Assembly (NCBI GenBank): GCA_964598425.1
Contig: CAZRBV010000005.1
Span: 1-64,000 of the forward strand
DNA: 64,000 nucleotides
Source: an uncultured Isosphaeraceae bacterium
GTDB lineage: Bacteria > Planctomycetota > Phycisphaerae > Phycisphaerales > SM1A02
Reading direction: 5' to 3'
The notes beneath the pieces were generated by a model. That model did no database searches. It saw only the letters and a list, made by a program, of their open reading frames with translations, and was not told the origin of the DNA. Positions 8,236 through 64,000 of this stretch are shown one piece after another. A program made the translations under genes and the position numbers. Numbering within the stretch: the first letter of the stretch is position 1; each line of letters begins with the position of its first letter.

Positions 8236-10212
8236 ATGAGTGGACACTGGGATCGCATCCAAGATCTCTTTCACCGCGCCACAGCAATGGATGTTGATTC
8301 GAGGGAGTCGTTCCTGAAAGAGGAATGCGGTGACGACCATGTGGTGTTGTCAGAAGTCCTTTCGCTGCTGCACGCGGGTGAAGAAGTCGAAGATGCGGCG
8401 CCAACGACACCCATGCCTGTGCCACCATCCCCACGCGACTCAATGATTGGCACGAAGGTCGCGCGTTACACAATCAAGCGAGTCATCGGCAGCGGCGGCA
8501 TGGGAGTCGTATACGATTCTGTTCAAGAATCGCCCCGGCGTGCTGTGGCGATCAAGATGCTCAAAAGAGGCGTTGCTTCAAGAAGCGAGCTGCGGCGGTT
8601 TCAGCGTGAGTCACAGACGCTGGGCCGCCTTCGCTATGAGGGCATCGCGCATATCTACGAAGCGGGCACGTGGGATGATGGTGCAGGTAGTCAACCGTGG
8701 TTTGCGATGGAGTATCTGCCAGGTGCCAAGACGAACACACGGTATTGCAATGACAAGGTACTTGGAATTCGCGACCGTCTTGTTGTCTTCCAGCATGTGT
8801 GCGCGGCCGTACATCATGGTCACCAGAAGGGCGTCATCCATCGCGATCTCAAGCCGGACAACATCCTTGTCACATCCAACGGTGAGCCCAAGATCATCGA
8901 CTTCGGTGTCGCCCGCAGCACAGACAGTGATTTGGTTGTTACGACATTGCAAACTGATGTAGGGTCGTTGATAGGCACCCTTCAATACATGAGTCCGGAA
9001 CAATGCGACGCCGACCCCAACGATATCGATGCTCGAAGCGACGTCTATGCCCTCGGCGTCGTTCTCTATGAACTGCTTTGCGGGCAACCCCCGTACGATC
9101 TCAATAGCGCCGCAATTCACGAAGCGGTGAGGGTTATCAAGGAAGAAGATCCAACGAAGCCTTCAGCCATCAACAGGCGCCTCCGAGGCAGCCTTGAGAC
9201 GATCACACTCAAGGCCCTGGACAAAGATCGCGATCACCGATACCGAGACGCCTCGGCGCTTGAATCGGACATCGAATGCTGGCTCCACGGTCGTCCAATC
9301 TCGGCCAGGGGCCGTTCAGTGTGGGATCGTGGAAAGCGGCTCCTTATGCGGAATCCGGCGAAGGTTGCCACGGTGTTGGTGGTGTGTCTGCTATTGGTGG
9401 TGATCTGGCAGTTGAGAGCCGAAACGGATGCGACTGCATCCGCCTTGCGCGGTCCGCAAGCAGGCGATACGCAGGAAATCTCCCTTGGCGACGATCGGTT
9501 CATAGTGCTTGTGGGTGTCCCAAAAGGTGGGTATTGGATGGGCTCACCCGACACAGATGAAGATCGCCGCATGCCAGAGTGGCCGCCGCATCACGTGCTG
9601 TTCGATCGGGGGTTTTGGATCGGTCAAACCGAAGTGACTCAGGAGGCATATAACGCTGTGATGAGCGCGAATCCGAGCAGGTCCATCGGAGAGAGAGAGC
9701 TGAGCAATCCAGTCGAGCAGATTACGTGGGATGACGCTGTGGGATTCTGCGAGAAACTCACTTTGCAGCAGCGCGCCGCAGAGGCGATTGGGCCTGAGCA
9801 ACGGTTTCGCCTTCCAAGCGAGGCGGAGTGGGAGTATGCGTGCCGCGCTGGGAGTACGAGCTGGTATTGCTTTGGCGAATCTGAGAGTGATCTGGGTGAT
9901 TACGCGTGGCAAGACCACAATTCCGCGAACGCAACCTATCCGGTTGCCCAGAAACAACCCAACGCGTGGGGACTCTACGACATGCACGGCAATGTATTGG
10001 AGTGGTGTGAGGATCCGTGGCATACCGATTATGAACACTCACCGGCGGACGGCAGTGTGTGGGAGACTGGCGGGAATCCTGATAGCCGAGTTGTTCGCGG
10101 AGGCAGTTGGCGTACCGCTCCATGGGCCTGCCGATCTGCCTACCGCAGTGGGAATTGCCCTGACGGCCGGTACTTCGACGTCGGGTTCCGTGTCGTCCTG
10201 GACTCAAGGTAA
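8236..10212 (+). CDS. Ser/Thr protein kinase fused to a C-terminal formylglycine-generating-enzyme (FGE-sulfatase/SUMF1-like) domain
   Basis: Kinase motifs: GSGGMGVVY (Gly loop), AIKML (VAIK), HRDLKPDNILV, DFGVA, SPEQ. A TM segment (VATVLVVCLLLVVIW) follows. The C-terminus has FGE-family motifs (ITWDDAVGFCEKLT, GLYDMHGNVLEWCEDPWH, RVVRGGSW...AYRSG). Confidence 0.85.
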   Translation: MSGHWDRIQDLFHRATAMDVDSRESFLKEECGDDHVVLSEVLSLLHAGEEVEDAAPTTPMPVPPSPRDSMIGTKVARYTIKRVIGSGGMGVVYDSVQESPRRAVAIKMLKRGVASRSELRRFQRESQTLGRLRYEGIAHIYEAGTWDDGAGSQPWFAMEYLPGAKTNTRYCNDKVLGIRDRLVVFQHVCAAVHHGHQKGVIHRDLKPDNILVTSNGEPKIIDFGVARSTDSDLVVTTLQTDVGSLIGTLQYMSPEQCDADPNDIDARSDVYALGVVLYELLCGQPPYDLNSAAIHEAVRVIKEEDPTKPSAINRRLRGSLETITLKALDKDRDHRYRDASALESDIECWLHGRPISARGRSVWDRGKRLLMRNPAKVATVLVVCLLLVVIWQLRAETDATASALRGPQAGDTQEISLGDDRFIVLVGVPKGGYWMGSPDTDEDRRMPEWPPHHVLFDRGFWIGQTEVTQEAYNAVMSANPSRSIGERELSNPVEQITWDDAVGFCEKLTLQQRAAEAIGPEQRFRLPSEAEWEYACRAGSTSWYCFGESESDLGDYAWQDHNSANATYPVAQKQPNAWGLYDMHGNVLEWCEDPWHTDYEHSPADGSVWETGGNPDSRVVRGGSWRTAPWACRSAYRSGNCPDGRYFDVGFRVVLDSR

Positions 10213-50167: not shown

Positions 50168-51967
50168 TTGGGAAACATCCGCCCGTGGAGTCACGGCATG
50201 GCGACTGGTCTGGTTGGGGCACGGAATCTTGGGAGATTGTCGCGGCGATCCGGCGGCATCCTGACCGATGCGCTGCTGCTGGCATTGATTCTGGCGGCAC
50301 TGGGTGTGCTGCTGTTGTACGGCAGGCAGGCCACCGGCGAGTATCACCGAGCCGCCGATATCGACCTCTCTGTTGCAGCCCTTCCTGGATACGCCGCGCT
50401 CAGCCTCTCTCGATGTTTGGCGGCATTTGTGCTCTCGCTTCTCTTCACGCTCGTGTGGGGATCGATTGCGGCGCACAACCGGCGGGCGGAACGCATCATG
50501 ATTCCGGCACTGGACATTCTGCAGACGATCCCCGTGCTGTCATTCCTTCCGCCAGTCACGCTCGCCTTCATCATGCTCGTTCCAGGCAGTGAGATCGGGC
50601 TGGAGCTCGCATGTGTCATCATGATCTTCACGGGTCAGGCCTGGAACATGGCATTCGGGTTCTACCAGTCGATTCGAAGCATCCCCTCGAGCCTGTACGA
50701 GGTCGCCAGGATCAACAAGCTTGGAAGTGTCCGCACGTTCCTTCACGTCGAGCTCCCAGGGTCGATGATCGGACTGGTCTACAACTCGATGATGTCTTTT
50801 GCGGGCGGATGGTTCTTCTTGACGACCATCGAGATGTTCACGCTTGGCCAGCGGGACTTTCGCCTTCCTGGTATCGGATCCTGGTTGGCAACGGCGCAGC
50901 AGGAACATGAGTGGGGACTTGTGGCAGCCGGTAGTGGCGCGCTGATCCTCCTTATTGTCGGCACAGATCAACTTGTATTCAGACCCCTTCTCGTGTGGGC
51001 GCAGCGATTCAAGATTGAGGAACAGGAATCAAGTCAACCGCCTCGATCCTGGCTCGTGACACTTTGGCGGCGGTCGCCTGTCGTGCGTGTGCTTCGTCGC
51101 CATCGCGTTGCTCGCCTTGCCGCCCGCCACAGCTCGCAGGGTTCGAAGCCTGTGAGGCGAGCGGGAGGTCACCAGTCTGCGCTCTGGGGCCGTGCCTTCA
51201 AACTTGTTCGGTGGCTCGCGCTGCTGGCAGGGGCCGTCGCTGCTGCGTGGGGTTTGTATGAACTTGTTCGCCTTCTGATCCCCCTGGAGTGGTCGAACGA
51301 TCGGGGAAATGGATGGCGCGATGTTCTGGCAGGACTTGGTTTGTCGTTTGCGCGAGTCGTGGCGGTACTCGTGATTGGCTCGATCTGGACGATTCCGTTG
51401 GGGCTGATCATCGGGCGGAGCAGTCGACTCCGCAGCTGGCTCGGTCCCGTGGTACAGGTCATCGCGTCGTATCCGGCGCCTGCGTACTTCGTACTTCTGA
51501 CCGTGACGCTTGGCAGTATCGGTACCCCGTTCTGGTGTATTGCGCCGCTCCTGATGCTGATGGGCAGCCAGTGGTACATACTCTTCAACGCGATGGGGGG
51601 CGCGACGGCGATTCCTGCGGACCTTGTGGAGATGTCGCGCGTTCAGCAACTTGGCTGGTGGGCGAGATTCCGAAAGGTCGAGGCGCCGGCGATGTTCCCA
51701 TTCCTCATCACGGGCTGGGTGACTGCTGCGGGCGGCGCGTGGAACACGACAATCGTTGCTGAGTACGTGCAAACGAGTGCCGGGCCAGATGGTGTCCGGG
51801 AAACCCTCGGAATCGGCTCGCTGATCGCCTCGGCGACGGATCACGGAGACTACGCGCTTCTCGCGGCATCAACGCTTTCGCTTGCGGCATTCGTCATCAT
51901 TTTCAATCGGTTTGTGTGGAACCGGCTCTACGGTCTTTGCGCTACTCGATACAACCTTCAATCCTGA
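50168..51967 (+). CDS. ABC transporter permease with two fused binding-protein-dependent transmembrane domains
   Basis: Two ~280-aa halves, each with about six TM segments and an EAA-like loop region (e.g. ...SLYEVARINKLGS... and ...LVEMSRVQQLGWWARF...). Confidence 0.8.
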   Translation: MGNIRPWSHGMATGLVGARNLGRLSRRSGGILTDALLLALILAALGVLLLYGRQATGEYHRAADIDLSVAALPGYAALSLSRCLAAFVLSLLFTLVWGSIAAHNRRAERIMIPALDILQTIPVLSFLPPVTLAFIMLVPGSEIGLELACVIMIFTGQAWNMAFGFYQSIRSIPSSLYEVARINKLGSVRTFLHVELPGSMIGLVYNSMMSFAGGWFFLTTIEMFTLGQRDFRLPGIGSWLATAQQEHEWGLVAAGSGALILLIVGTDQLVFRPLLVWAQRFKIEEQESSQPPRSWLVTLWRRSPVVRVLRRHRVARLAARHSSQGSKPVRRAGGHQSALWGRAFKLVRWLALLAGAVAAAWGLYELVRLLIPLEWSNDRGNGWRDVLAGLGLSFARVVAVLVIGSIWTIPLGLIIGRSSRLRSWLGPVVQVIASYPAPAYFVLLTVTLGSIGTPFWCIAPLLMLMGSQWYILFNAMGGATAIPADLVEMSRVQQLGWWARFRKVEAPAMFPFLITGWVTAAGGAWNTTIVAEYVQTSAGPDGVRETLGIGSLIASATDHGDYALLAASTLSLAAFVIIFNRFVWNRLYGLCATRYNLQS

Positions 51968-51977
51968 GACTGAACCT

Positions 51978-53291
51978 ATGCGTATCGATCCTCCAATCTG
52001 CGAAGCGCGCGCCCTGGATGTCTCTTTTGGCAGTCCGCCTGTCGAGGTACTCCGAGGCGTAGATATCGAAGTGCGTCCGGGCGAGACCCTCGCCATTCTC
52101 GGGCCGAGCGGCTGTGGCAAGAGCACGCTGCTGCGGGCGCTGTGCGGCCTTCTGACACCCTCCGGGGGCGAGGTGCTTGCAAACGGAACTCCACTCGACG
52201 GAGTCCATCCGGGCGTATCGATCGTGTTTCAGTCCTTTGCGTTGCTGCCGTGGCTCAGCGTGCAGGACAATGTCGGTCTCGGGGTCAACGGGATCGATAT
52301 CACCGACGAACAGGCGAGACGGCGCATTTCTGAGTGCATCGAGCTTGTGGGACTCGATGGTTTCGAGCAGGCCTTCCCAAAGGAACTCTCTGGTGGCATG
52401 AAGCAGCGTGTCGGCATCGCGCGAGCCTTGGCGCGTTCGCCGCAACTCCTTTGTATGGATGAGCCTTTCAGCGCGCTCGATGTGTTTACAGCCGAAACAC
52501 TTCGCAGCGAGGTGTATCGACTTTGCCGTGAAGCCGATGCGGATCCAGATGAGTCGCGCGCGATCGAAGGGCTTCGAAGCGTGCTCATCATCACGCACAT
52601 CATTGAAGAGGCTGTCTTTCTGGCGGACAGGATCGTTGTCATGTCGGCCCGGCCGGGAGAAGTGCAGTGCATTATCGACAATACGGTGCCGCATCCACGC
52701 GAGTATCACGATCCTGCCTTTGAGGCCATGGTGCGCCGCCTTCATACGCAGATTGTGGAAGGTGAGGATCTCGACGAGTTTGATCAAGTCGTCGGAACCG
52801 CAGATGGGCGACTTGAAGTCCTTCCCGAGGTCACGATGTCGGAGATCATCGGAGTGGTTGAGGTGCTGCACGACCACGGCAATTCCATGGATCTCTTTGA
52901 TCTCGATGAAGAGACCGAAGAGGAACTCGGTCGGTTGCTGAGCCTGATCAAAGCCGGTGAGCTCCTGGATCTGGTCGATGCGAGTGGAAATCGAGTTTCG
53001 GTCACAGCGGCGGGGACGTCGCTTCTCGGGGCCGAGCCATCGGATCGAAAGGAAGTATTGGCCAGCCAGTTGCAGCGGCTCAATGTCATGCAGTGGGCGA
53101 TCGAGCAGGTGTCCAAGGCGGGCAAAGATGGATTGGACCGTGAGAGTCTGGAGTCGATGTTGGTCCAGCGGCAACCGCGTGGGGCCAGCACCCTGCATTC
53201 ACTCCTCGCATGGGCCAGATACGCCGAGGTGTTGACCTGGACCACCGAGGATGGGGTGATCACGCTTGGGGAGGCGGTTTGTAGGGGCTAA
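51978..53291 (+). CDS. ABC transporter ATP-binding protein (NitT/TauT-like) with ~190-aa C-terminal extension
   Basis: Walker A GPSGCGKST, Q-loop, signature LSGGMKQRVGIARAL, Walker B LLCMDEPFSALD, H-loop ITHII. An extra C-terminal domain has no recognised motif. Start taken at ATG 51978, 10 nt after the permease stop. Confidence 0.85.
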   Translation: MRIDPPICEARALDVSFGSPPVEVLRGVDIEVRPGETLAILGPSGCGKSTLLRALCGLLTPSGGEVLANGTPLDGVHPGVSIVFQSFALLPWLSVQDNVGLGVNGIDITDEQARRRISECIELVGLDGFEQAFPKELSGGMKQRVGIARALARSPQLLCMDEPFSALDVFTAETLRSEVYRLCREADADPDESRAIEGLRSVLIITHIIEEAVFLADRIVVMSARPGEVQCIIDNTVPHPREYHDPAFEAMVRRLHTQIVEGEDLDEFDQVVGTADGRLEVLPEVTMSEIIGVVEVLHDHGNSMDLFDLDEETEEELGRLLSLIKAGELLDLVDASGNRVSVTAAGTSLLGAEPSDRKEVLASQLQRLNVMQWAIEQVSKAGKDGLDRESLESMLVQRQPRGASTLHSLLAWARYAEVLTWTTEDGVITLGEAVCRG

Positions 53292-53531: not shown

Positions 53532-54611
53532 ATGGATGTGAAGGGTTCTCTACGCACTATTCTAAGCCTACTTGCTGTGTTGGCAGGTGGATACGTCGAC
53601 GCGGGCACCCTTCGGGTCCCCGGGGATGCCGCAACGATCCAGCACGCCATTGACCTTGCTCAGATCGGGGATGTGGTTGAAGTCGGCCCAGGTGTGTGGC
53701 CCGAGGCCATCGATCTTCGAGGCAAGTCGATTCTGCTTCGCGGCCGGGATGGCGCTGAAACGACGATTATCGACGCCAAGGATCGCGGCGAGAGCGTGGT
53801 CCGGTGCATGAGCGGCGAAGGTCCGGGCACTGTCCTTGAGGGACTCACTCTGACCGGTGGTACCGGGCACGAGGGCTTGCATGGAAGCAGCACGGCAATT
53901 GGCGGCGGCCTCCTGGCAATTGGAGCGTCGCCCACGATCCGCGACTGCATCTTCAAGTCCAACACAGTCAGTCGTAACGGTGGGGGAGCCTACTGTGGCA
54001 AAGGCGGAAACGTTCGATTCGAGCGATGCCGCTTTGAAGGCAACGCTGCTGAGAAGGGTGCCGGCCTGCTGTGTGTCGGTAGCACGCCGGTATTGGATCG
54101 GTGCATCTTCACGGATAACACCGCTCGATTCAGCGGCGGCGGTTTGTATGCGGCCAAAGGCAGCTCGCCTGTCGTGCGAGAGTGCCAGTTCGTTCGAAAC
54201 CAAGCATCATTCCAGGGTGGTGGCGTGTGCTCGCTCGACTCGGCCGGCGAACTCCTTGGTGGCGTTTTTGAGCGCAATCGCGCTGGAAGCCACGGCGGGG
54301 CCGTCTACCTTGGATTCAGGACCACGATGCAGGCGGCCGCATGCCAGTTCGTGTCTCCGACGGACACGATCGATGGAACGACAGCAATCGCCCGCCGCGA
54401 TCTCCGACGCGGAGCCTGTGATCTGAGTGAAGCTGTCACCGTGCTGGCGGAAGAACACGACTGTGTTGCAGCGGGCGGGCAGTATCGCGGCGATGGCACT
54501 CGGTGCCCATCGCCTTCCGAGAGCCAACTCGCGCGAAGGCGCGGCGACCTTGATCGAGATGGCCGCGTCAGCAGACGCGATCTTGCAATCATGATGCTTC
54601 TGTGGCGCTGA
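53532..54611 (+). CDS. Secreted right-handed parallel beta-helix repeat protein with C-terminal dockerin-like motif
   Basis: Signal peptide, then repeated G-x-G/A...NxA beta-helix rungs (SRNGGGAYCGKGGNV, NAAEKGAGLLCVGS, NTARFSGGGLYAAKGS, NQASFQGGGVCS). C-terminal RRGDLDRDGRVSRRDLAIMMLLW. Confidence 0.6.
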   Translation: MDVKGSLRTILSLLAVLAGGYVDAGTLRVPGDAATIQHAIDLAQIGDVVEVGPGVWPEAIDLRGKSILLRGRDGAETTIIDAKDRGESVVRCMSGEGPGTVLEGLTLTGGTGHEGLHGSSTAIGGGLLAIGASPTIRDCIFKSNTVSRNGGGAYCGKGGNVRFERCRFEGNAAEKGAGLLCVGSTPVLDRCIFTDNTARFSGGGLYAAKGSSPVVRECQFVRNQASFQGGGVCSLDSAGELLGGVFERNRAGSHGGAVYLGFRTTMQAAACQFVSPTDTIDGTTAIARRDLRRGACDLSEAVTVLAEEHDCVAAGGQYRGDGTRCPSPSESQLARRRGDLDRDGRVSRRDLAIMMLLWR

Positions 54612-54615
54612 GCGA

Positions 54616-55983
54616 TCAATCCTCAAGCACCAACGATTCAATCAGTGATGACACCATGCTCATAGGAACCCGCGTTGGCAGGTCCAGCGACTCGCTGCAC
54701 CACAGGAGTGGGTCGAGGTCGGGATCGTTACGGCCGTGGCTTCCTTGCACCAGTGACGTATCGAGCGGGATGACATCCATGAGGGTGCGGAATCCAAGTC
54801 GGCGGCGGACAAGGCGCCAGCCGATTGCTGCAGGTGGCAAGGCGATGCGCGGATCGAGGAATAACTCCCTCGGGTCATAACCAGGCTTTCGGTGAATGTC
54901 GACGGTGCGTTGATAGTCGGGAGCGCGGTCTGGATCTGTCCACCAATCGTGGCAGAACCAGCGATCTCTGGCTGCCACGAGTACCAGATCACCGCACCGT
55001 TCGTGGGAGAGCCCTTCAGACTTGAGAGTGGTGCCCTGGAGTACACGATCGACACCGGTTGCAGTCTGAAAGAGATCAGCGACCGTGGTGGCCTGCGCAG
55101 GATCAGCGACGTACACGTGAGCGATCTGATGGTCGGGTACCGCGAAGGCGCCGCTCGCGCCAGCATCGAGCATCTCTCGCCCTTGTTCCACCCGAAGCGA
55201 GAGCAGCCCCGCTGATCGGAGGATTCGATTTGGAGCTACAGCATCGGTGACAGCGGTGATGCCGTACTCATTGACCAACAGGATGCGGCGACCGCTCGCC
55301 ATGAGCGACTCAATCAGATCGGCGGCGACGTCGTCGAGCTCGCGGCACGCACTGGGGATGTTCGGATGATCCGGGCCGAGTTTTTGAAGTCCATAGTCCA
55401 GGTGGGGCAGATAGGCGAGCAGCAGCGTGGGATTCAGCGTCTGGTCCACGAACATGGCGGCTTCCGCGATCCATGTGCTGCTGGAAATGTCCGCCGCCGG
55501 GCCCCAGAATCTGAAGAGCGGAAACTGCCCGAGTCGATGCTGCAGCTCGTCACGGAGTTCTGATGGCTGCGTCCAGACATCGGGAATCTTGCGTCCGTCC
55601 GCCGGATACACAGGGCGGGGTGTCACGGAGATGGTTGCTCCGCTGTACATCGCAAACCACCAGAAGCAATTGGCGGTCGTGACCGATGCATCTCTGGCGG
55701 CAAGCCGGTCCCATACCTTCTCGCCTTGAACGAGGCGATTGGACTGCTGCCAGAAGTGTGTTTCTGCCCGCTCGCGATCATGCCACCCGTTTCCGACGAT
55801 GCCGTGTGTTGAAGGCGCGGTCCCCGTGAGCATCGTGGACTGGCTTGTGCACGTGACTGCTGGCAGTGGGGGGTGCAGGGCGCGCTCGCTTCCCGACGAC
55901 ATCAGGGCTGTGAGTCGCGGCATGTGCGCGCGCTGCCGCTCGGTCAGTGCAACGAGATTGATAACGGCGGTGCGGTGCGGCAT
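54616..55983 (-). CDS. eboF: Alkaline-phosphatase-superfamily enzyme (type I phosphodiesterase/nucleotide pyrophosphatase-like); EboF-type member of an ebo-like cluster
   Basis: AlkP-core N-terminus (AVINLVALTERQRAHMPRL...CTSQSTMLTG) with a metal-binding Thr/Ser. The 455-aa size fits. Start ATG 55983 lies 4 nt after the upstream UbiA stop. Confidence 0.65.
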   Translation of the reverse strand: MPHRTAVINLVALTERQRAHMPRLTALMSSGSERALHPPLPAVTCTSQSTMLTGTAPSTHGIVGNGWHDRERAETHFWQQSNRLVQGEKVWDRLAARDASVTTANCFWWFAMYSGATISVTPRPVYPADGRKIPDVWTQPSELRDELQHRLGQFPLFRFWGPAADISSSTWIAEAAMFVDQTLNPTLLLAYLPHLDYGLQKLGPDHPNIPSACRELDDVAADLIESLMASGRRILLVNEYGITAVTDAVAPNRILRSAGLLSLRVEQGREMLDAGASGAFAVPDHQIAHVYVADPAQATTVADLFQTATGVDRVLQGTTLKSEGLSHERCGDLVLVAARDRWFCHDWWTDPDRAPDYQRTVDIHRKPGYDPRELFLDPRIALPPAAIGWRLVRRRLGFRTLMDVIPLDTSLVQGSHGRNDPDLDPLLWCSESLDLPTRVPMSMVSSLIESLVLED

Positions 55984-55987
55984 GCGA

Positions 55988-56881
55988 TCAGGATCCTCCA
56001 CCAAGCCGCTGCGCGCCAAGTGTGACCCCCGCAAGAATCATCGACGCGGCCGACCAGCCGACGTGTCCAGCCGCCAGGAGCATGCTGCTGTCCAGCACCG
56101 CCAGTCCAGCGATCGCCCAGCAGACGGCTTCGCTGTGGCGACCGGCCTTGATGCGGCGGTGGACGCTTGGCGTCCAGGCAATCAGCATAATCAGAATCGA
56201 TGCGCCAACGGCGCCCGCAGTCGAGTTCGGGCTCGTCCATCCAACACCAATGATGCCTACGACGGACAGAATCAACCAGACAATGCCATGCGAGATTCGT
56301 TGTTCACCACCTCGTTCACCCCGGCCGATGCAGGTGATTCCAATGGTCCAGAGTCCTACGCCAGCGGATGCCCACCACACAGCGGGGTTGACTTGATCGG
56401 TCAGCAGGAGGGCCGTCAGCACAGGCACGCAGCTTCGGCATCCAGCCATCAACGCGGTCGCAGCCAGGACGCTGTGGCGATGCGTGAATTGGTACAGGAA
56501 GATCATTGCGGTCAATACGCCAGCAGCGATCAACGATTCGATGGTGTTGGCACCAAGGAAGCTGGCAAAGCCAACGATCGAAAGACCGACGATGACAAGC
56601 AGCCCGCCGATGGAAGCGGCTTCTCGGGCTGACATGCGACCTGCTGCGACAGGTCTGGTCGACTTATTCGCGCGATCAAAATCGGCGTCACCGGCATCAT
56701 TGATCGCCATGCCACCGAGATAGAGCATCGACACGCCTGTGATTGCGCCAGCAAGGCAGGGAACGGCATTCAGCTCGAGAGCTTGCAGTGACAGCCCGGC
56801 GCCAAGCAGCACATTTGACCACACCGTCGGGAGGTTCGCCGCGCGAAGCGTCGTCCACCAGTCTCGCGTGGTGCTCACCAC
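55988..56881 (-). CDS. eboC: UbiA-family aromatic prenyltransferase; EboC-type
   Basis: Aspartate-rich motif AINDAGDADFD (NDxxDxxxD), eight or nine TM segments, and a second Asp-rich region. GTG start at 56881 with GGAGG 4 nt upstream. Confidence 0.7.
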   Translation of the reverse strand: MVSTTRDWWTTLRAANLPTVWSNVLLGAGLSLQALELNAVPCLAGAITGVSMLYLGGMAINDAGDADFDRANKSTRPVAAGRMSAREAASIGGLLVIVGLSIVGFASFLGANTIESLIAAGVLTAMIFLYQFTHRHSVLAATALMAGCRSCVPVLTALLLTDQVNPAVWWASAGVGLWTIGITCIGRGERGGEQRISHGIVWLILSVVGIIGVGWTSPNSTAGAVGASILIMLIAWTPSVHRRIKAGRHSEAVCWAIAGLAVLDSSMLLAAGHVGWSAASMILAGVTLGAQRLGGGS

Positions 56882-57957
56882 CCGACCTCCTTCATGACGC
56901 CCGCGGTCCATTCGAGTTCGCGGGCAATCTCGGCTTGCACAGTTGGAAGGCGAAACGACGCTGGCAACACATCCCAGGCGTACGTTTCCACTTCAACTGG
57001 CGGCCGCTGTCCGGAGTCGGCAACGGCGGCGAGGAGCTTCGCAATCCACGGCTGTGTCGATCCGAGCGGGCCGAAGGTCTCTCGGTGCACGGGCACATGA
57101 CAATGCGTTCGCCAGAGTCCTTCGCACGCTCGATCGCATGTCTCCGGAATATCGTCATACATGCTCAGAACGCCGCCGCTGAGTACCGAGGTCTGGTGCA
57201 TCCAGCGAGCTTCATCGAGCGACTGCAGGGCCTTGATGCCCTCGGGCGTGTCTGATTCTGGGGCCGACGAGACTTGCACGCGTCCGACGCGGATGCCAGC
57301 TTCGCGCAGCGCGCCGACTGCCGCGATCGGTTCCTCGTGTTCAACGGCGAGATGGCAGGCATCGAGACATGCGCGGAGCGTTCCCTGCTTCGCGTGCCGA
57401 TTCAGTGACGTTGCCGATACGAATCTGCCCAACGCGGCCGCTGTCGGAATCAGGCAGCACGGTTCGGGTTCAATGGCGAGGAAGATCTCTCTGCCGTGGT
57501 TCGCGCCAAGCCGTTCGAGTTCAACGCACGCCTGCCCAATCAGGTCTACGGCAGCTTCAACGTCGATGTCGTGAGCAGGCCACCCGATCGGGACCGTCGT
57601 CAGGCCAATCTCGTCGCCAGGATTGCTGAGGGCGATCAGGGCTTCGGCCGCTCGAAGTGTGTACGCAAGACGCGCGGGATCGTCCCATGCTGGTTGGTAC
57701 ACGGCATCCTTGACGCGCTTGGCGTGGAAGTTGCCTTGGGGGAAGGCATTGAGCCCGAGCAAGGGTGTTCCCATGCTGCCGAGCGCTTGGGCAATCGGAC
57801 CGACCTGTTCGGCAGGGTTGTTCCCCAGGATGTCATCGGGCAGCCAGAGCCCGACCTTGGAACCCTCCGGCATACATTCGGTCATGGCTTTCAGGGCGTC
57901 TGCAAGATCGGTGATCGTCCGAGTTGGCAGCACATTCGTGCACCAGCCGGGTCGCAC
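56875..57957 (-). CDS. eboE: Xylose-isomerase-like TIM-barrel sugar-phosphate isomerase/epimerase; EboE-type
   Basis: AP-endonuclease-2 / xylose-isomerase-like TIM-barrel family by length and conserved E/H/D pattern (EIFLAIEPEP...CLDACHLAVEHE). The stop overlaps the UbiA start region. Confidence 0.6.
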   Translation of the reverse strand: MRPGWCTNVLPTRTITDLADALKAMTECMPEGSKVGLWLPDDILGNNPAEQVGPIAQALGSMGTPLLGLNAFPQGNFHAKRVKDAVYQPAWDDPARLAYTLRAAEALIALSNPGDEIGLTTVPIGWPAHDIDVEAAVDLIGQACVELERLGANHGREIFLAIEPEPCCLIPTAAALGRFVSATSLNRHAKQGTLRACLDACHLAVEHEEPIAAVGALREAGIRVGRVQVSSAPESDTPEGIKALQSLDEARWMHQTSVLSGGVLSMYDDIPETCDRACEGLWRTHCHVPVHRETFGPLGSTQPWIAKLLAAVADSGQRPPVEVETYAWDVLPASFRLPTVQAEIARELEWTAGVMKEVGW

Positions 57958-57958
57958 G

Positions 57959-58762
57959 TCAGGCCTCTACGCGAAAGTTCGGTGATCGACCGAGGAACGC
58001 AATTGGATTGGCGAATGTCACTTTCTCGATCATCTCTGCAGGATGACGGCGTCGTTTCATTTCCATCCGGGCCTTGGGGACAGCCAGCGGGTCGGAATCA
58101 CCCCAGTCGCCGGCGGAATTCATCCAGATGCGGTCCGTGCCCCATTGCTCAAGAATGTCGACAGCTCGCTGAGGCGTGCATTTGGTATCGGGATACAGCG
58201 TCATGCCCGCCCAAAACCCACGGTCCAGAACAAGGCCAACGGTGTGTTCCTCGACGTGATCAATGAGCACCCGGTCGGGATTGAGGCCAGCGTTGTCGAC
58301 CGCGTCCAGAATCAGGCCCGTGCCCTTGTGTTTGTCTTCGAGATGCGGGGTATGGACGAGTACGAGTTGATCACGCTGCTGCGCGAGCTCAAGATGTGCC
58401 TCCAGCACAGCGAGTTCATTCTTGCTGTTCTTGTTGAGGCCGATCTCTCCAATGCCAAGGACGTTTGGGCAGTCGAGGAAGTCCGGAATAACTGACATCA
58501 CTTCCTTTGCGAACCCGGTGTCCTCGGCTTCTTTTGGATTGATGCATAACCAGCAGTGGTGTTGGATTCCGTACTGCGCTGCTCGCTTTGGTTCGGTGTC
58601 GGTCAATTGACGGTAGTAGTCACGGAACCCGTCGACGCTGCAGCGATCAAAGCCGGCCCAGAAGGCCGGTTCGGTAATCGCCACGCATCCCGCCTGTGCC
58701 ATGCGGCGATAGTCATCCGTTGTCCGAGACACCATGTGAATGTGAGGATCGATGTACCTCAC
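57959..58762 (-). CDS. eboB: TatD-family metal-dependent hydrolase; EboB-type
   Basis: N-terminal MRYIDPHIHM (the HxH metal site of TatD/amidohydrolase folds), plus downstream His/Glu/Asp ligands (LVHTPH, DHVEEH). The 267-aa size fits TatD. Confidence 0.7.
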   Translation of the reverse strand: MRYIDPHIHMVSRTTDDYRRMAQAGCVAITEPAFWAGFDRCSVDGFRDYYRQLTDTEPKRAAQYGIQHHCWLCINPKEAEDTGFAKEVMSVIPDFLDCPNVLGIGEIGLNKNSKNELAVLEAHLELAQQRDQLVLVHTPHLEDKHKGTGLILDAVDNAGLNPDRVLIDHVEEHTVGLVLDRGFWAGMTLYPDTKCTPQRAVDILEQWGTDRIWMNSAGDWGDSDPLAVPKARMEMKRRRHPAEMIEKVTFANPIAFLGRSPNFRVEA

Positions 58763-59064
58763 GGAGTTGTGTCCGGGTTTGGAGCACCGAAGGCACCTTG
58801 CATCGGCGCCGAATCAATCGGCTCACTGGAGGAATCGCTGAGCAGCATCTGGATGCGTTTCGCGCGATCACCCTCGCCATCTATCAGCAGGGCGACAGCC
58901 CTTTGGAGGTACTCGACTCGAAAGTCTTCATCGCCACCAGTGCGGTCAAGCCGATCGAAAAAGGCGGCAAGGTCGAGCACTTTGGCGCGGTGCTCGAGGA
59001 AGTAGGCGTCAACAACCTCGGTGGGGGTCATTGGGCAGTGCGGCGTATGTCTCATGGGGACCAT
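58759..59064 (-). CDS. Small conserved-position hypothetical protein inside the ebo-like cluster (candidate EboA-like)
   Basis: A 101-aa ORF with ATGA overlap to the TatD gene and a 2-nt gap from the DHQS-like gene. No recognisable domain. Confidence 0.35.
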   Translation of the reverse strand: MVPMRHTPHCPMTPTEVVDAYFLEHRAKVLDLAAFFDRLDRTGGDEDFRVEYLQRAVALLIDGEGDRAKRIQMLLSDSSSEPIDSAPMQGAFGAPNPDTTP

Positions 59065-59065
59065 G

Positions 59066-60343
59066 CTACCCCGCCCGGGTGTGCCGCTTCTCGCACCGGC
59101 CCCGGACCAGACGAATCGCCTGCCGCATCTGCTCGAGATCGACCGATGAGATTTCGCTGGATGTGCCAGCCTCGGTCACCATGGTCAATGCGAGTGTCCC
59201 GCCGAGATGTTCTCTGAATCGTTCGATCCCTTCCAGCAGCCGGTCCTCATCGCCCATGGCGTCGCTGGTCAATGGGAATCCCAGCGAAGCGAGGCAGTCG
59301 GTGATGCGGCTGACCAGTGAAGCCGATCCACCGAGACTCAGGGCCGCGTACTGCAGATCGATGAGAAGCCCGATTGCGACGGCATCACCGTGCGAGAGGC
59401 GAAATCCTGTCATCTGCTCAAGCCGGTGCGCCGACCAGTGGCCGAAATCGAGCGGGCGGGCTCGCTGTATCTCGAATGGATCGCCACCCTGGACAATGTG
59501 GGCGACATGGAGATCTGCGGTCCGTGTCACGATGCGCTCCATCGTTTCAAGATCACGACTCACAAGTGAGTCGGTGGATCTCTCGACATCGTCGAGCAAC
59601 GCGGTGTCCTTGAGCAGCGCAACCTTGAGCGACTCACTCAATCCCGCTCGCCAATCGCGTTCGGCCAGCGATGTGAGCAGTTCGGCATCGTTGACAACGG
59701 CCCATGGCGGCGCAAAGGTGCCGATGAGGTTTTTGGCGCCGAAGGCATTGATGCCATTCTTGACGCCGACACCTGCATCGGCCTGTCCGAGTGTGGTCGA
59801 CGGGAGTCGGATCAATCGAACGCCGCGGTGGGCCGTACTTGCTGCGAGCCCGACGGCGTCGAGCATCGCCCCGCCGCCGATCGCAAGGACAAAGGACTGC
59901 CGGCAAATGCGCCGATCATGAATGGCTCGGACCGTCTGATCAAAGACTGTTCGATCATTCTTGGCCCGCTCGCCACCTGGAAGGATCAGTGGTGCACTTG
60001 CGACTTTGATCCGCGATGCATGTTGCTCTGTCCACTCGATGACACGAGCAGGGAGGTCTGGTTGAGCTGCAACGAGCCCTTCGTCCATGACGCACAGAAG
60101 GCGGTGCGGACCGCCGTCATGCGGGAAGATCCCCGCAAGTGATTCGCCTTCAGTCGTAAATGCCCTCCTGCACGAAAGCACTCGGTGCCGCCACCGCACT
60201 TGAATGGTTCCGCTAGATGGCAGTTCTTGCACGCTTGGCTCCGACACACCCGCACCCATTTCCAAAGCCATGATACGGTGAACTGTGACGAATTCTCCGG
60301 AGAATGCTTCATTCTCCGGCATAGGATGCACGGCCTCTGACAT
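59066..60343 (-). CDS. eboD: 3-Dehydroquinate-synthase-like sugar-phosphate cyclase; EboD-type
   Basis: DHQS-family motifs: glycine-rich NAD site LAIGGGAMLDAVG, the Zn/substrate region GVKNGIN...K, and HGDAVAIG (His ligands). The track ORF runs to 60502. ATG 60343 (MSEAVHP) is preferred, but 60400 is also possible. Confidence 0.7.
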   Translation of the reverse strand: MSEAVHPMPENEAFSGEFVTVHRIMALEMGAGVSEPSVQELPSSGTIQVRWRHRVLSCRRAFTTEGESLAGIFPHDGGPHRLLCVMDEGLVAAQPDLPARVIEWTEQHASRIKVASAPLILPGGERAKNDRTVFDQTVRAIHDRRICRQSFVLAIGGGAMLDAVGLAASTAHRGVRLIRLPSTTLGQADAGVGVKNGINAFGAKNLIGTFAPPWAVVNDAELLTSLAERDWRAGLSESLKVALLKDTALLDDVERSTDSLVSRDLETMERIVTRTADLHVAHIVQGGDPFEIQRARPLDFGHWSAHRLEQMTGFRLSHGDAVAIGLLIDLQYAALSLGGSASLVSRITDCLASLGFPLTSDAMGDEDRLLEGIERFREHLGGTLALTMVTEAGTSSEISSVDLEQMRQAIRLVRGRCEKRHTRAG

Positions 60344-60354
60344 GGAGTATTCGC

Positions 60355-60825
60355 ATGGACAGCTTGCAAGATCGTGTTCGTCGCCTGGAAACTTCGCCAT
60401 GGCGGAGGATGATGCCGCTGGTGCTTGGCGTTGGGCTGGTTGGTGGGCTCCTCGGCGCTGGGGCTTCCGAGACCGTATCCCGCCAGTTGATGGGTGGTTC
60501 ACTTGTCATTGTGAACCAAAGTGGTCGACCGGTGATTTCGCTCGGTTCAGGTTCAGATGGTCACGGGCATATGGTCATCGCAAACGCTGACGGTACCGCG
60601 ATGCTTGTCTTGAAGGCTGGCGAGCGTAGCGGGGACATTGACGTCTTTGATGACAAGGGTCACCGGCTGGCCAAGCTCGGCAACTCTCCAAGTGGAGATG
60701 GGATGTTGCTACTCGGCGGCGAAGATGGTGATCCACTTGTCCGCGCGGGAAGATGGGATGTTGGTGCAGGTCATGGTCAATTGTGGCTTCGTGATCCGGC
60801 AGTTACCGAGCCTTCCACGCCGTGA
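60355..60825 (+). CDS. Small membrane-anchored Gly-rich protein, function unknown
   Basis: N-terminal TM (MMPLVLGVGLVGGLLGAGAS). Divergent from the ebo-like operon. No domain recognised. Confidence 0.35.
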   Translation: MDSLQDRVRRLETSPWRRMMPLVLGVGLVGGLLGAGASETVSRQLMGGSLVIVNQSGRPVISLGSGSDGHGHMVIANADGTAMLVLKAGERSGDIDVFDDKGHRLAKLGNSPSGDGMLLLGGEDGDPLVRAGRWDVGAGHGQLWLRDPAVTEPSTP

Positions 60826-62014
60826 GCCCTGCTTCCAGGATTCGCACGCTGCGCCGAAGCACATCTTTCTGGACGCAGTAGGTCATGCGCACTTCGTTGA
60901 GGCCAAGCCCTTCTGTGCGGTAAAAGCCTGCAAGTGGAGCAAGGCACACCGTTTCACCGTCAAGGTCGAACTCGCTTACGAGCCATCGACAGAATGCGTC
61001 GGCATCATCGACGGGCAATGGGATGGCGAGATAGAAGGCACCCTCCGGTGTCGGTACGTCCAGGCCGATGTTGCGAAGTCCTTCGACGAGGACGTTCCGC
61101 CGTTCCTGATACTCGGCATTGACCCGGCGGAACCACGACTCTGGTACAGAGAGTGCTGCGTGGGCCGCATACTGATCCACACTCGCGGGTGAGAGACGAG
61201 TCTGCGCGAATCGAAGGGCAGCTTCACGGAGTTCCGAGTTTCTGGTGATGAGCCAGCCGATTCTTGCGCCGCACGCGCTGTACCGCTTTGAAACGGAGTC
61301 GATGATGATTGCGTGCTCGTCCGCTGCTGGAATGTCGAGCAGCGAGGCAGCCCGGGTTCCAGGTTCGACGTCGTACACGAAGTCGCGGTAGACCTCATCG
61401 CAAATGAAGAAGATGTCCCGCTCGACGCAGATTGCCGCGATGGTTTCAAGGTCCTCCCGGCTGAGTACCGTTCCAGTCGGATTTCCAGGCGTCGGAAGAA
61501 TGAGCGCGCGGGTCTTACCGGTGATGGCCGCTGCGATGGCCTCAGGGTGAACCTTGAATCCGTCAGATGCTGAAAGCGTGACAGGAGATACTTCAACACC
61601 AAGGAGATGGCTGAAGCCGGCGTAGTTCGTGTAGTAGGGCTCGCATACGAGCACTTCGTCGCCCGGATCAGCAACGGATGCAATGGAGAAGAGGAGGGCC
61701 TCGGATCCACCGGTTGTGACGACGATGTCTTCGGCTTCAACGTCTCGGGTGATGCCTCCGTTGCTTGAATACCAGACCGCGAGATCTTGTCTGAATTCGA
61801 CAAACCCATCGCTGGGGGCATACGCAAGGACATCATCGTGGAAGGTGCGGTAGGCCTCCGTCATTTCGCACGGCGTCGAGATATCCGGCTGGCCGATATT
61901 CAGGGCGTGCACTGTCACACCGCGGTCCTGAGCCGCTCGGGCGAGCCCTGCCAGCGCGCGAATAGGAGATGCTGGCGCGTCCGAGCCGCGTCTGGAAAGT
62001 GTACATGTGGACAT
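60803..62014 (-). CDS. Class I/II pyridoxal-phosphate-dependent aminotransferase (aspartate/aromatic aminotransferase-like)
   Basis: Fold-type I motifs: LNIGQPD, GNPTG, a PLP-Lys region (SVSKRYSACGARIGW), and a C-terminal Arg. The 403-aa size fits. Confidence 0.8.
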   Translation of the reverse strand: MSTCTLSRRGSDAPASPIRALAGLARAAQDRGVTVHALNIGQPDISTPCEMTEAYRTFHDDVLAYAPSDGFVEFRQDLAVWYSSNGGITRDVEAEDIVVTTGGSEALLFSIASVADPGDEVLVCEPYYTNYAGFSHLLGVEVSPVTLSASDGFKVHPEAIAAAITGKTRALILPTPGNPTGTVLSREDLETIAAICVERDIFFICDEVYRDFVYDVEPGTRAASLLDIPAADEHAIIIDSVSKRYSACGARIGWLITRNSELREAALRFAQTRLSPASVDQYAAHAALSVPESWFRRVNAEYQERRNVLVEGLRNIGLDVPTPEGAFYLAIPLPVDDADAFCRWLVSEFDLDGETVCLAPLAGFYRTEGLGLNEVRMTYCVQKDVLRRSVRILEAGLTAWKAR

Positions 62015-62995: not shown

Positions 62996-63850
62996 CTACG
63001 CAGACCCGTGAGCCGGCTCGTCCTGACGAACCTTCGTTTGTTCCAGCTCTGCGTAGGCGTTGTGCGAGTGGATCGATTCGAAGTTCTCGCTGTGAATCCG
63101 GTACCAGTCGATTCGTGGCTCGGCGTCAAGACTGTGGGCGAGATCCCGCACGATGTCTTCGACAAACTTCGGGTTCTCAAAGGCTTGCTCGGTGACGACC
63201 TTTTCGTCGGGTCGTTTGAGCACGCTGTAGACCGGGCAACTGGCTGATGCTTCGATGAGTTCCACGAGTTCCTCGATCCACACCATGCGGTTCATGCGAA
63301 TGTCAGCCGAGATGACGCACCTCTGATTGTGCGCTCCGTATTTGGATATCTCCTTGGAGCATGGGCAGAGACTCGTTGCTGGCGCAGATACCCCCAATAC
63401 GAATGTGTCGCCCTGGCTGGAGGAATCGCATGTCATTCGGACGGCGTAGTCCATGAGTCCCGGACGGCCAGTGGCGGGCGCCATCTTGTTGATGAAGTAC
63501 GTGAACTCCATTTCGACATGTGCCCGCTCGGCGTCGAGCGCCACTCGAATACCGCGGCACAAGTCGATGATGCGGCTGGGTGACATTCCCTCGCGGTAGT
63601 CGTTGAGCATCTCCAGAAACCGGCTCATGTGTGTTCCCTTGCGATCGTCTGCAAGAGACACATACATGTTGACGGTGGCATCAACGGTTTCCTGACTGCC
63701 ATCGCGGGTGGCGACGCTGATTGGATACCGGATTCCTTTCACGCCGACCCGGTCGATAGCGACTCGCCGCTCGTCAGATCGCCCCTGGACGTCTGGGATC
63801 GATTCGGCGGTGGTATCGGTAGTCAATCTGTCGGTATGGGTGGTGGTCAT
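62996..63850 (-). CDS. folE2: GTP cyclohydrolase FolE2 (type IB, MptA/FolE2 family)
   Basis: IPDVQ...IDRVGVKGIRYPISV is the FolE2 N-terminal signature. Cys/His/Glu metal-site residues are conserved downstream. The track ORF runs to 63907, and ATG 63850 is the more likely start. Confidence 0.8.
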   Translation of the reverse strand: MTTTHTDRLTTDTTAESIPDVQGRSDERRVAIDRVGVKGIRYPISVATRDGSQETVDATVNMYVSLADDRKGTHMSRFLEMLNDYREGMSPSRIIDLCRGIRVALDAERAHVEMEFTYFINKMAPATGRPGLMDYAVRMTCDSSSQGDTFVLGVSAPATSLCPCSKEISKYGAHNQRCVISADIRMNRMVWIEELVELIEASASCPVYSVLKRPDEKVVTEQAFENPKFVEDIVRDLAHSLDAEPRIDWYRIHSENFESIHSHNAYAELEQTKVRQDEPAHGSA

Positions 63851-64000
63851 TGATATCGCCCTGTATGGGGGGGAACTTCCCATTCTACCTGAGCCTGCAT
63901 GGTCCACTCAATTGAAACTGGCCCTTCTCAGCGCGCAGGAGTGGGTGGCGGTAGCCAGGGCGTGTCGCTACTGGCCGGCGAGTCGTGAGGCGACGTGGCC

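Follow-up and report, generated by a model that had tools for sequence, protein, structure and literature searches.

A probable eboG-type ebo operon of gene order DGBECF in an uncultured marine Phycisphaerales planctomycete

Introduction

Two variants of the ebo gene cluster have been described. In addition to the clusters that include eboA, Yurchenko et al. 2016 (Open Biol 6:160249; PMC5133447) recognized a second variant, in which eboA is missing and a short gene unrelated to it, eboG, is present. The gene order DGBECF is listed in Table S2 of that study for Deinococcus geothermalis, D. apachensis, D. peraridilitoris, D. swuensis, and Herpetosiphon aurantiacus DSM 785, and the order CDGBEF for an acidobacterium and Thermithiobacillus (PMC5133447). 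The taxa with eboA and those with eboG were found to form a split, and it was proposed that the two variants could perhaps yield alternative products (PMC5133447). Here, we analyze a block of six genes at positions 54616-60343 of a stretch of 64,000 nucleotides of contig CAZRBV010000005.1 (hereafter, the window, meaning the whole stretch). Very probably, the block represents an ebo operon of the eboG type (DGBECF), carried on the chromosome of an uncultured marine planctomycete of the Phycisphaerales.

Several reports bear on the chemistry of such genes. EboD has been reported to be a DEI synthase (Tanoeyadi 2024, as cited in PMC12904256), and flavobacterial EboC homologs farnesylate quinoline carboxylic acids (PMC9235831). 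A preprint of May 2026 (bioRxiv 10.64898/2026.05.21.724671) ties the ebo genes to thallusin, an algal growth signal and morphogen: the genes were present in 27 thallusin producers and absent in 8 non-producers (five phyla), L-aspartate enters the quinoline core of thallusin, and EboC enzymes from three phyla, a planctomycete included, farnesylate a 6,7,8-trihydroxyquinaldic acid ester. According to the same preprint, single deletions of eboB, eboC, eboE, or eboF in the planctomycete Stieleria maiorica abolish thallusin production. The planctomycete ebo genes are described there as scattered and eboA as absent, the main text mentions neither eboG nor Phycisphaerae, and even this work assigns no separate role to EboB, EboE, EboF, or EboG (10.64898/2026.05.21.724671). 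An earlier note on the window, written from its letters and open reading frames (ORFs), had called the chemistry of the pathway unsolved in every organism, a statement that these reports on EboD, EboC, and thallusin make outdated.

Results

Six tightly packed genes in the order DGBECF

The ORF list and a reading of the sequence place six co-directional ORFs, tightly packed on the minus strand, across 54616-60343. Their order in the direction of transcription is D-G-B-E-C-F. The first gene, eboD (59066-60343), encodes a sugar-phosphate cyclase of the dehydroquinate synthase (DHQS)-like type, with the Pfam domains DHQ_synthase and DHQS_C and a match to NF004852. It is followed by eboG (58759-59064), which encodes a small helical protein of 101 amino acids (aa) that has no Pfam or NCBIfam model and is homologous to Deinococcus EboG, and by eboB (57959-58762), encoding a TatD-like metal-dependent hydrolase (Pfam TatD_DNase). 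The next gene, eboE (56875-57957), encodes a xylose-isomerase-like TIM-barrel protein that matches the TIM_EboE equivalog NF035939, and eboC (55988-56878) encodes a UbiA-like membrane prenyltransferase (Pfam UbiA) for which NF035940 (EboC) is the top NCBIfam match. The last gene, eboF (54616-55983), encodes a nucleotide pyrophosphatase/phosphodiesterase of the alkaline-phosphatase superfamily (Pfam Phosphodiest). The six genes and the enzyme types given in the earlier note were thus found as ORFs, and, apart from the 101-aa protein, their domains were confirmed by Pfam/NCBIfam.

The eboD stop codon is separated from the eboG ATG by 1 nucleotide (nt), and the eboG stop codon overlaps the GTG start of eboB by 4 nt (GTGA), the two genes being taken as translationally coupled. 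A gap of 1 nt lies between the eboB stop and the eboE GTG, the eboE stop and the GTG start of eboC again overlap by 4 nt (GTGA) with a GGAGG a few bases upstream, and the eboC stop is followed after 4 nt by the eboF ATG. All five junctions are therefore gaps of at most 4 nt or overlaps of 4 nt, a spacing that makes transcription of the block as a single unit, starting upstream of eboD, most likely. The packed co-directional block that the earlier note had described holds, but its ATGA overlaps are GTGA and its 2- and 4-nt gaps measure 1, 1, and 4 nt.

The start codon of eboD is uncertain, with candidates at 60343, 60322, 60271, and 60259. Gene callers placed it at 60322 on the source metagenome contigs. 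In an N-terminal alignment of EboD homologs, conservation starts at EPSVQEL, for which reason the ATG at 60271 or 60259 is favored over 60343. On the same contigs, the gene call for eboF (455 aa) begins at 55983. The only non-coding gap upstream of the block is 60272-60354, between eboD and a divergent ORF of 156 aa. We presume that it holds the promoter region, to which no strand is assigned and whose extent depends on the true eboD start. No Rfam match was found in this region or in the window as a whole.

Family assignment of the enzymes

EboD scores 459.9 bits on NF004852 (cutoff 333) and fails the aroB model TIGR01357 with 196.5 bits (cutoff 305). On these two models, the EboD proteins encoded in the ebo clusters of Deinococcus, Roseivivax, and Gloeothece reach 552-594 bits and 202-232 bits, respectively. 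EboE passes its equivalog NF035939 with 274.9 bits (cutoff 250), residues 5-351 being aligned to positions 3-378 of the 379 in the model. Its score of 16.3 bits on AP_endonuc_2 is under the cutoff of 31.1, and no match to XylA was found in the profile scans.

EboC scores 65.5 bits on Pfam UbiA, 30.2 bits on the UbiA model TIGR01474 (ubiA_proteo; cutoff 275), and 19.2 bits on MqnP (cutoff 375). Its Asp-rich Mg-binding motif NDxxDxxxD (N60, D61, D64, D68) is invariant in all eight ebo-linked EboC proteins that were aligned. EboB scores 23 bits on the TatD model TIGR00010, with a cutoff of 206, and EboF scores 183.8 bits on Pfam Phosphodiest. The block contains eboB, eboC, eboE, and eboF, the core set for thallusin, plus eboD. 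The identification of the block as an ebo cluster, as proposed in the earlier note, is borne out by EboE passing the equivalog, by EboD passing NF004852 and failing aroB, and by EboC having NF035940 as its top match. Nor do the model scores place the proteins with housekeeping AroB, xylose isomerase, or UbiA/MenA, the grouping against which that note had set its proposal.

Closest known clusters

Two Deinococcus plasmids in PLSDB (L089 and L090) carry clusters annotated as 3-dehydroquinate synthase, hypothetical protein, TatD hydrolase, eboE, UbiA prenyltransferase, and phosphodiesterase. In tblastn, each of the six window proteins matched both clusters (E values of 2e-7 to 3e-140), with order and orientation preserved. 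The identities are 43-46% for EboD, 40-41% for EboG, 54-55% for EboB, 30-35% for EboE, 28-29% for EboC, and 48-54% for EboF. Because six of six proteins are collinear with two Deinococcus clusters, the arrangement is far beyond chance. It should be noted that the Deinococcus, Gemmatirosa, and EboA-type clusters used for comparison were taken from a plasmid collection, the best 80 loci of our genome scan being all planctomycete. The order D-small gene-B-E-C-F is indeed non-canonical, as the earlier note had observed, but it is not new, DGBECF having been catalogued in 2016 (PMC5133447).

The window EboB is 54-62% identical to eboG-linked EboB proteins (Deinococcus, Gemmatirosa) and 43-48% identical to EboA-linked or other EboB proteins. 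It groups with the eboG-linked proteins, and a neighbor-joining tree, calculated without bootstrap, separates the two groups. This split of EboB agrees with the split of eboA and eboG taxa reported in PMC5133447.

Other plasmids carry related arrangements. Plasmid 2 of Gemmatirosa kalamazoonensis (NZ_CP007130.1, L093), from the Gemmatimonadota, shows another eboG-type arrangement, e*-G-B-F-C, in which eboE is encoded on the other strand. At 62% identity, its EboB is closer to the window EboB than any other match from outside the planctomycetes. A haloarchaeal plasmid, from Halobaculum salinum (NZ_CP058580.1, L096), encodes TatD/EboB, sugar-phosphate isomerases, a UbiA prenyltransferase, a phosphodiesterase, and an inositol-3-phosphate synthase. 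There is no annotated DHQS-like gene in the stretch shown, which resembles the eboD-less 'ino' arrangement reported for Actinomycetota. The ebo-type cluster on a plasmid of Streptomyces sp. NBC_00019 (NZ_CP108303.1, L094) comprises ino1, an SCO3242-family prenyltransferase, an isomerase, EboA, TatD, EboE, and a phosphodiesterase. On its flanks are genes for a ScyD/ScyE-family protein and a multicopper oxidase, possible candidates for the late oxidative steps.

EboG is not EboA, and its gene is paired with eboB

The second protein of the block is 40% identical over about 90 residues to the Deinococcus protein encoded between eboD and eboB (BLASTP E values of 4e-18 and 5e-20). The Deinococcus strains compared here differ from those listed in 2016, so that the match to EboG is one of genus and gene position. 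No Pfam or NCBIfam model matched the protein, the EboA models included.

We considered whether this protein could be EboA and rejected the idea. No match to the EboA models NF035937/NF035938 was obtained at E values up to 10, BLASTP against Roseivivax EboA gave an E value of 3.1, and hhalign gave probabilities of 0.13% with one EboA and 0.05% with a profile of three EboA sequences. None of 20 EboG family members matched NF035937/NF035938, and the control, Roseivivax EboA, was detected by the two models at 214 and 153 bits. The "eboA-F" set announced in the earlier note therefore has to be corrected: eboA is absent from the cluster, the 101-aa gene is eboG, and the block is eboDGBECF.

A profile search found at least 6,582 sequence clusters of the EboG family at E ≤0.01 among the 8,000 candidates examined. 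All named EboG-family proteins among 120 listed are called hypothetical. An AlphaFold2 model built from a 45-sequence alignment has three helices and is confident over this helical core (mean predicted local distance difference test score, pLDDT, 82; predicted template modeling score, pTM, 0.65), and a Foldseek search of the PDB with this fold returned nothing under E = 4. Public gene calls (L001-L005) give an EboG of 90 aa that starts at 59031. The CP[LM] motif, conserved across the family, is encoded upstream of Met12. Because this motif precedes the Met of the 90-aa call, the 101-aa start (59064) or Met4 is favored.

In the planctomycete loci that we scanned, eboG lies immediately upstream of eboB in 75 of 80. 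Of 79 loci, 42 have a 4-nt overlap between the eboG stop and the eboB start, and in 66 the two lie within 30 nt of each other. The pairing is kept in Planctomycetia-type loci where the flanks examined hold no other ebo genes. Such a near-universal and often overlapping pairing may mean that EboG and EboB act together, perhaps through direct contact.

Distribution among planctomycetes

Species-representative genomes were scanned with an EboB profile. The best 80 loci (L009-L088) were all planctomycete, and 54 of them had enough flanking sequence to be informative. Across these 80 genomes, EboB is 70-89% identical to that of the window. Collinear DGBECF order was found in 24 of the 54 informative loci; in a few of these, B and E are separated by an inserted stretch of about 2.2 kb. 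Another 16 have the G-B pair only and are mostly Pirellulales, Planctomycetaceae, or Fuerstiella metagenome-assembled genomes (MAGs); the remainder are partial. Outside this set, the same block recurs in L007 and L008, with an identical DGBECF order in L007. Compact operons are thus common in the planctomycete loci examined, mostly in MAGs labeled Phycisphaerae or Phycisphaerales, and the scattering of ebo genes published for planctomycetes needs to be qualified accordingly. We found no description of a clustered Phycisphaerae ebo operon in the literature searched, although the supplementary census of the preprint may include some.

The earlier note had regarded the compact version in the window as a good target for heterologous expression. 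It is not special in this respect, as the same block occurs in 24 of 54 loci and in cultured Deinococcus strains; cultured Deinococcus or Herpetosiphon offer clusters of identical order that are just as good for this purpose.

The proteins of the cluster have evolved at very uneven rates, identities over L009-L088 being 70-89% for EboB, 29-59% for EboE, and 22-51% for EboC. In the Phycisphaerae-type loci L021, L049, L050, and L055 (also L067 and L084), about 1.3-2.8 kb are inserted between eboB and eboE.

Reports on eboA in planctomycetes conflict. In the 2016 study, three Planctomycetia were sampled and showed no clustering, and 'EboA' was listed for them, adjacent to eboB only in Blastopirellula (PMC5133447). 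Table S2 of that study thus lists 'EboA' where the preprint states that it is absent (10.64898/2026.05.21.724671). The Planctomycetia-type loci seen here (L023, L028, L032, L053, and others) carry eboG directly upstream of eboB.

Host and genomic context

The EboE sequence of the window is also present on metagenome contigs of SAMN10231911-14 (run SRR8062322), on which neighboring genes match at 99-100%. The closest genomes are Phycisphaerae/Phycisphaerales MAGs, with EboB 84-89% identical, and their isolate names (SI075, Arabian9, ALOHA) point to marine water-column sites. These nearest relatives support the planctomycete-like genome of the earlier note down to the class Phycisphaerae. In the two closest, L009 and L011, synteny spans folE2, the aminotransferase, the ebo block, the beta-helix gene, and the ABC transporter.

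Upstream of eboD, an ORF of 156 aa on the plus strand (60355-60825) has no family match. It starts about 12-95 nt from the possible eboD starts and overlaps the 3' end of the aminotransferase gene by 23 nt. Lying on the opposite strand, it separates eboD from the aminotransferase and folE2, and it is 37-46% identical in four relatives (L009, L010, L011, L013). Beyond it, on the minus strand, are a class-I aminotransferase gene (60803-62014; NF005744, 485 bits, cutoff 389) and folE2 (62996-63907; NF010200, 280 bits, cutoff 215). The earlier note was right that these two genes are present, but not that they lie just downstream of the block: in the direction of transcription they are upstream. 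Their synteny is limited to the nearest five to seven genomes, at variable distance, and is absent from the Deinococcus, L007, and L008 clusters. A functional link of these genes to ebo is tempting, L-aspartate being a thallusin precursor, and was rejected in view of the intervening opposite-strand ORF and the narrow synteny. From this context, folE2 and the aminotransferase appear to stand outside the ebo system.

On the other side, a gene for a right-handed beta-helix/Chlamydia-PMP-repeat protein (53532-54611, plus strand) converges on eboF. The two stop codons are 4 nt apart, tail-to-tail. This arrangement recurs in 11 related Phycisphaerae loci (35-63% identity) and is conserved more deeply than that of any other neighbor. 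An ABC transporter follows at 50168-53291; as it is syntenic in just two relatives, a link to ebo was rejected.

The remainder of the window is ordinary chromosomal context, with Ser/Thr kinases, a glycine dehydrogenase, a SerA-like dehydrogenase, and signaling proteins. No tRNA was found in the whole window. Of note, the gene at 8236-10212 (plus strand) encodes a Ser/Thr protein kinase fused to an FGE-sulfatase (sulfatase-modifying-factor-like) domain and is unrelated to the ebo block.

Discussion

The identities of the six genes, their order, their tight coupling, and their orthology to known ebo clusters are observed features of this locus. Because of the published work on homologs (EboD, EboC, and the thallusin preprint), the most likely function is the synthesis of a meroterpenoid of the saccharoquinoline/thallusin type; whether the product of the window operon would be thallusin or saccharoquinoline specifically appears to us an evenly balanced question. 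In the predicted pathway, EboB, a TatD-like hydrolase, probably with its coupled partner EboG, would act together with EboE and EboF to convert a cyclitol and L-aspartate to a hydroxylated quinaldic-acid core, EboE possibly as an isomerase or dehydratase of the TIM-barrel type and EboF as an enzyme of the phosphatase/pyrophosphatase type. The membrane protein EboC would then farnesylate this core and may also cyclize the product to give a saccharoquinoline/thallusin-type meroterpenoid. All of these steps, as well as the end product, are carried over to the window operon from the literature and should be read as predictions.

Several points weigh against this reading. The thallusin link comes from a preprint, and its planctomycete producers are presumed, by analogy, to be of the eboG type. 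Expression and chemistry in the host are deduced from the genes, and transcription as one unit from their spacing. Consensus scans gave no promoter-like site and four terminator-like sites, not above shuffled sequence, although the sigma-70-like consensus used is uninformative for planctomycetes. Neither a polyprenyl-diphosphate synthase nor a ring-cleaving (di)oxygenase was found among the larger window ORFs scanned. EboC reaches 83.7 bits on NF035940, its best NCBIfam match, which is far under the cutoff of 250. Bona fide in-cluster EboC proteins are also under this cutoff (Deinococcus, 106.9 bits; Roseivivax, 85.8 bits). Since these fail too, NF035940 does not cover EboC of other than ABCDEF-type clusters, and the model is evidently limited to the ABCDEF-type clade.

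The alternative that survives best accepts the ebo operon and holds that the eboG type makes another product, either a different prenylated cyclitol-derived molecule or a different quinoline-type molecule, with EboG versus EboA deciding the outcome. Alternative products of the EboA and EboG variants were indeed proposed in 2016 (Yurchenko 2016, PMC5133447), EboG and EboA are unrelated by profile comparison, and EboB divides into eboG-linked and eboA-linked groups. EboC and EboE are also highly divergent, only 28-35% identical to those of Deinococcus, so that the substrate or product could differ, and the producers tested in the preprint include no eboG-type organism outside Planctomycetota (10.64898/2026.05.21.724671). 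However, thallusin is reported from planctomycetes without eboA, and the quinaldic-acid substrate that the Bacteroidota EboC farnesylated was farnesylated by EboC of a planctomycete, Stieleria neptunia, as well (10.64898/2026.05.21.724671). In addition, loci of Pirellulaceae, Pirellula, and Fuerstiella have eboG-eboB pairs whose EboB is 72-73% identical to that of the window. We regard a different product as unlikely, though deserving of serious consideration.

It is far less probable that the ebo products mainly serve metabolite traffic and make, in place of a secreted signal, a lipid-linked carrier by which other metabolites would cross the inner membrane, as has been proposed for the scytonemin monomers of Nostoc. 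Such a role was proposed by Klicki 2018 (PMC6282210), the NCBI name for EboE is 'metabolite traffic protein', and EboC is a membrane prenyltransferase. The preprint, however, suggests that the effect on scytonemin may be indirect and reports thallusin in Nostoc punctiforme (10.64898/2026.05.21.724671), and scytonemin genes were not found among the window genes scanned. Lastly, the Pfam names alone (DHQ_synthase, UbiA, TatD_DNase) would permit a reading as housekeeping genes of shikimate, quinone, and sugar metabolism (AroB, UbiA/MenA, xylose isomerase, TatD DNase) that are adjacent by coincidence, but the scores on aroB, UbiA, MqnP, and TatD TIGR00010 are all below the respective cutoffs, EboE passes its own equivalog, and the six-gene order is conserved across phyla, so that this reading is effectively refuted.

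The locus changes little for the field: an enzyme was assigned to the first step of the pathway in 2024, and the link to thallusin, with planctomycete deletion mutants, followed in a preprint of 2026. Cluster type, gene order, and eboG were already described in 2016, and the locus is one more example of a known system. The near-constant linkage of eboG and eboB across planctomycete loci is one small new point. For planctomycetes, the literature notes just the absence of eboA, whereas their pathway has eboG in tight coupling with eboB; eboG is a conserved, uncharacterized partner of eboB that current thallusin work has yet to address. In bacteria that lack eboA, EboG could even be an overlooked obligatory partner of EboB in the thallusin/ebo pathway, acting as its subunit or chaperone, an idea that we find plausible without leaning toward it. 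If so, the "core eboB, C, E, F" would lack a member, and the split between A-type and G-type clusters might mark two mechanistic solutions to one step. Uncultured marine Phycisphaerales would also be potential thallusin producers, if the preprint holds.

Compared with known systems, the window operon is closest in organization to the DGBECF clusters of Deinococcus, with which it shares the six gene families, their order, and their orientation, eboG replacing eboA in both. It differs from the Deinococcus and Herpetosiphon clusters in its host, an uncultured marine member of the Planctomycetota, class Phycisphaerae. With the canonical eboABCDEF clusters of eustigmatophyte plastids, Bacteroidota, and Cyanobacteria, the window shares the families B, C, D, E, and F and, as for the Maribacter thallusin genes, the predicted chemistry (DEI synthase, then quinoline core, then farnesylation). 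Unlike them, it lacks eboA, has the order D-G-B-E-C-F, and encodes an EboB that is 43-48% identical to the EboA-linked or other EboB proteins compared here and an EboC far under the NF035940 cutoff.

The EDB cluster of Pseudomonas fluorescens NZI7 contains homologs of six ebo genes, including the DHQS-like and UbiA-like genes needed for its phenotype (Burlinson 2013, as cited in PMC12904256). As described in PMC12904256, it differs in having three extra genes, in being homologous to the eboA-F set, and in its association with nematode repellence and tryptophan catabolites; it is by this description that we set it apart. Among planctomycetes, the thallusin producers Stieleria maiorica Mal15 and Rhodopirellula sp. 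UH5 are reported to have dispersed ebo genes, whereas in the window all six lie together, compact and co-directional. MAGs of Pirellulales, Planctomycetaceae, and Fuerstiella likewise have eboG ahead of eboB, and their EboB is 70-75% identical to that of the window. The Planctomycetia-type loci examined show the G-B pair alone within the available flanks, unlike the full block D-G-B-E-C-F of the window.

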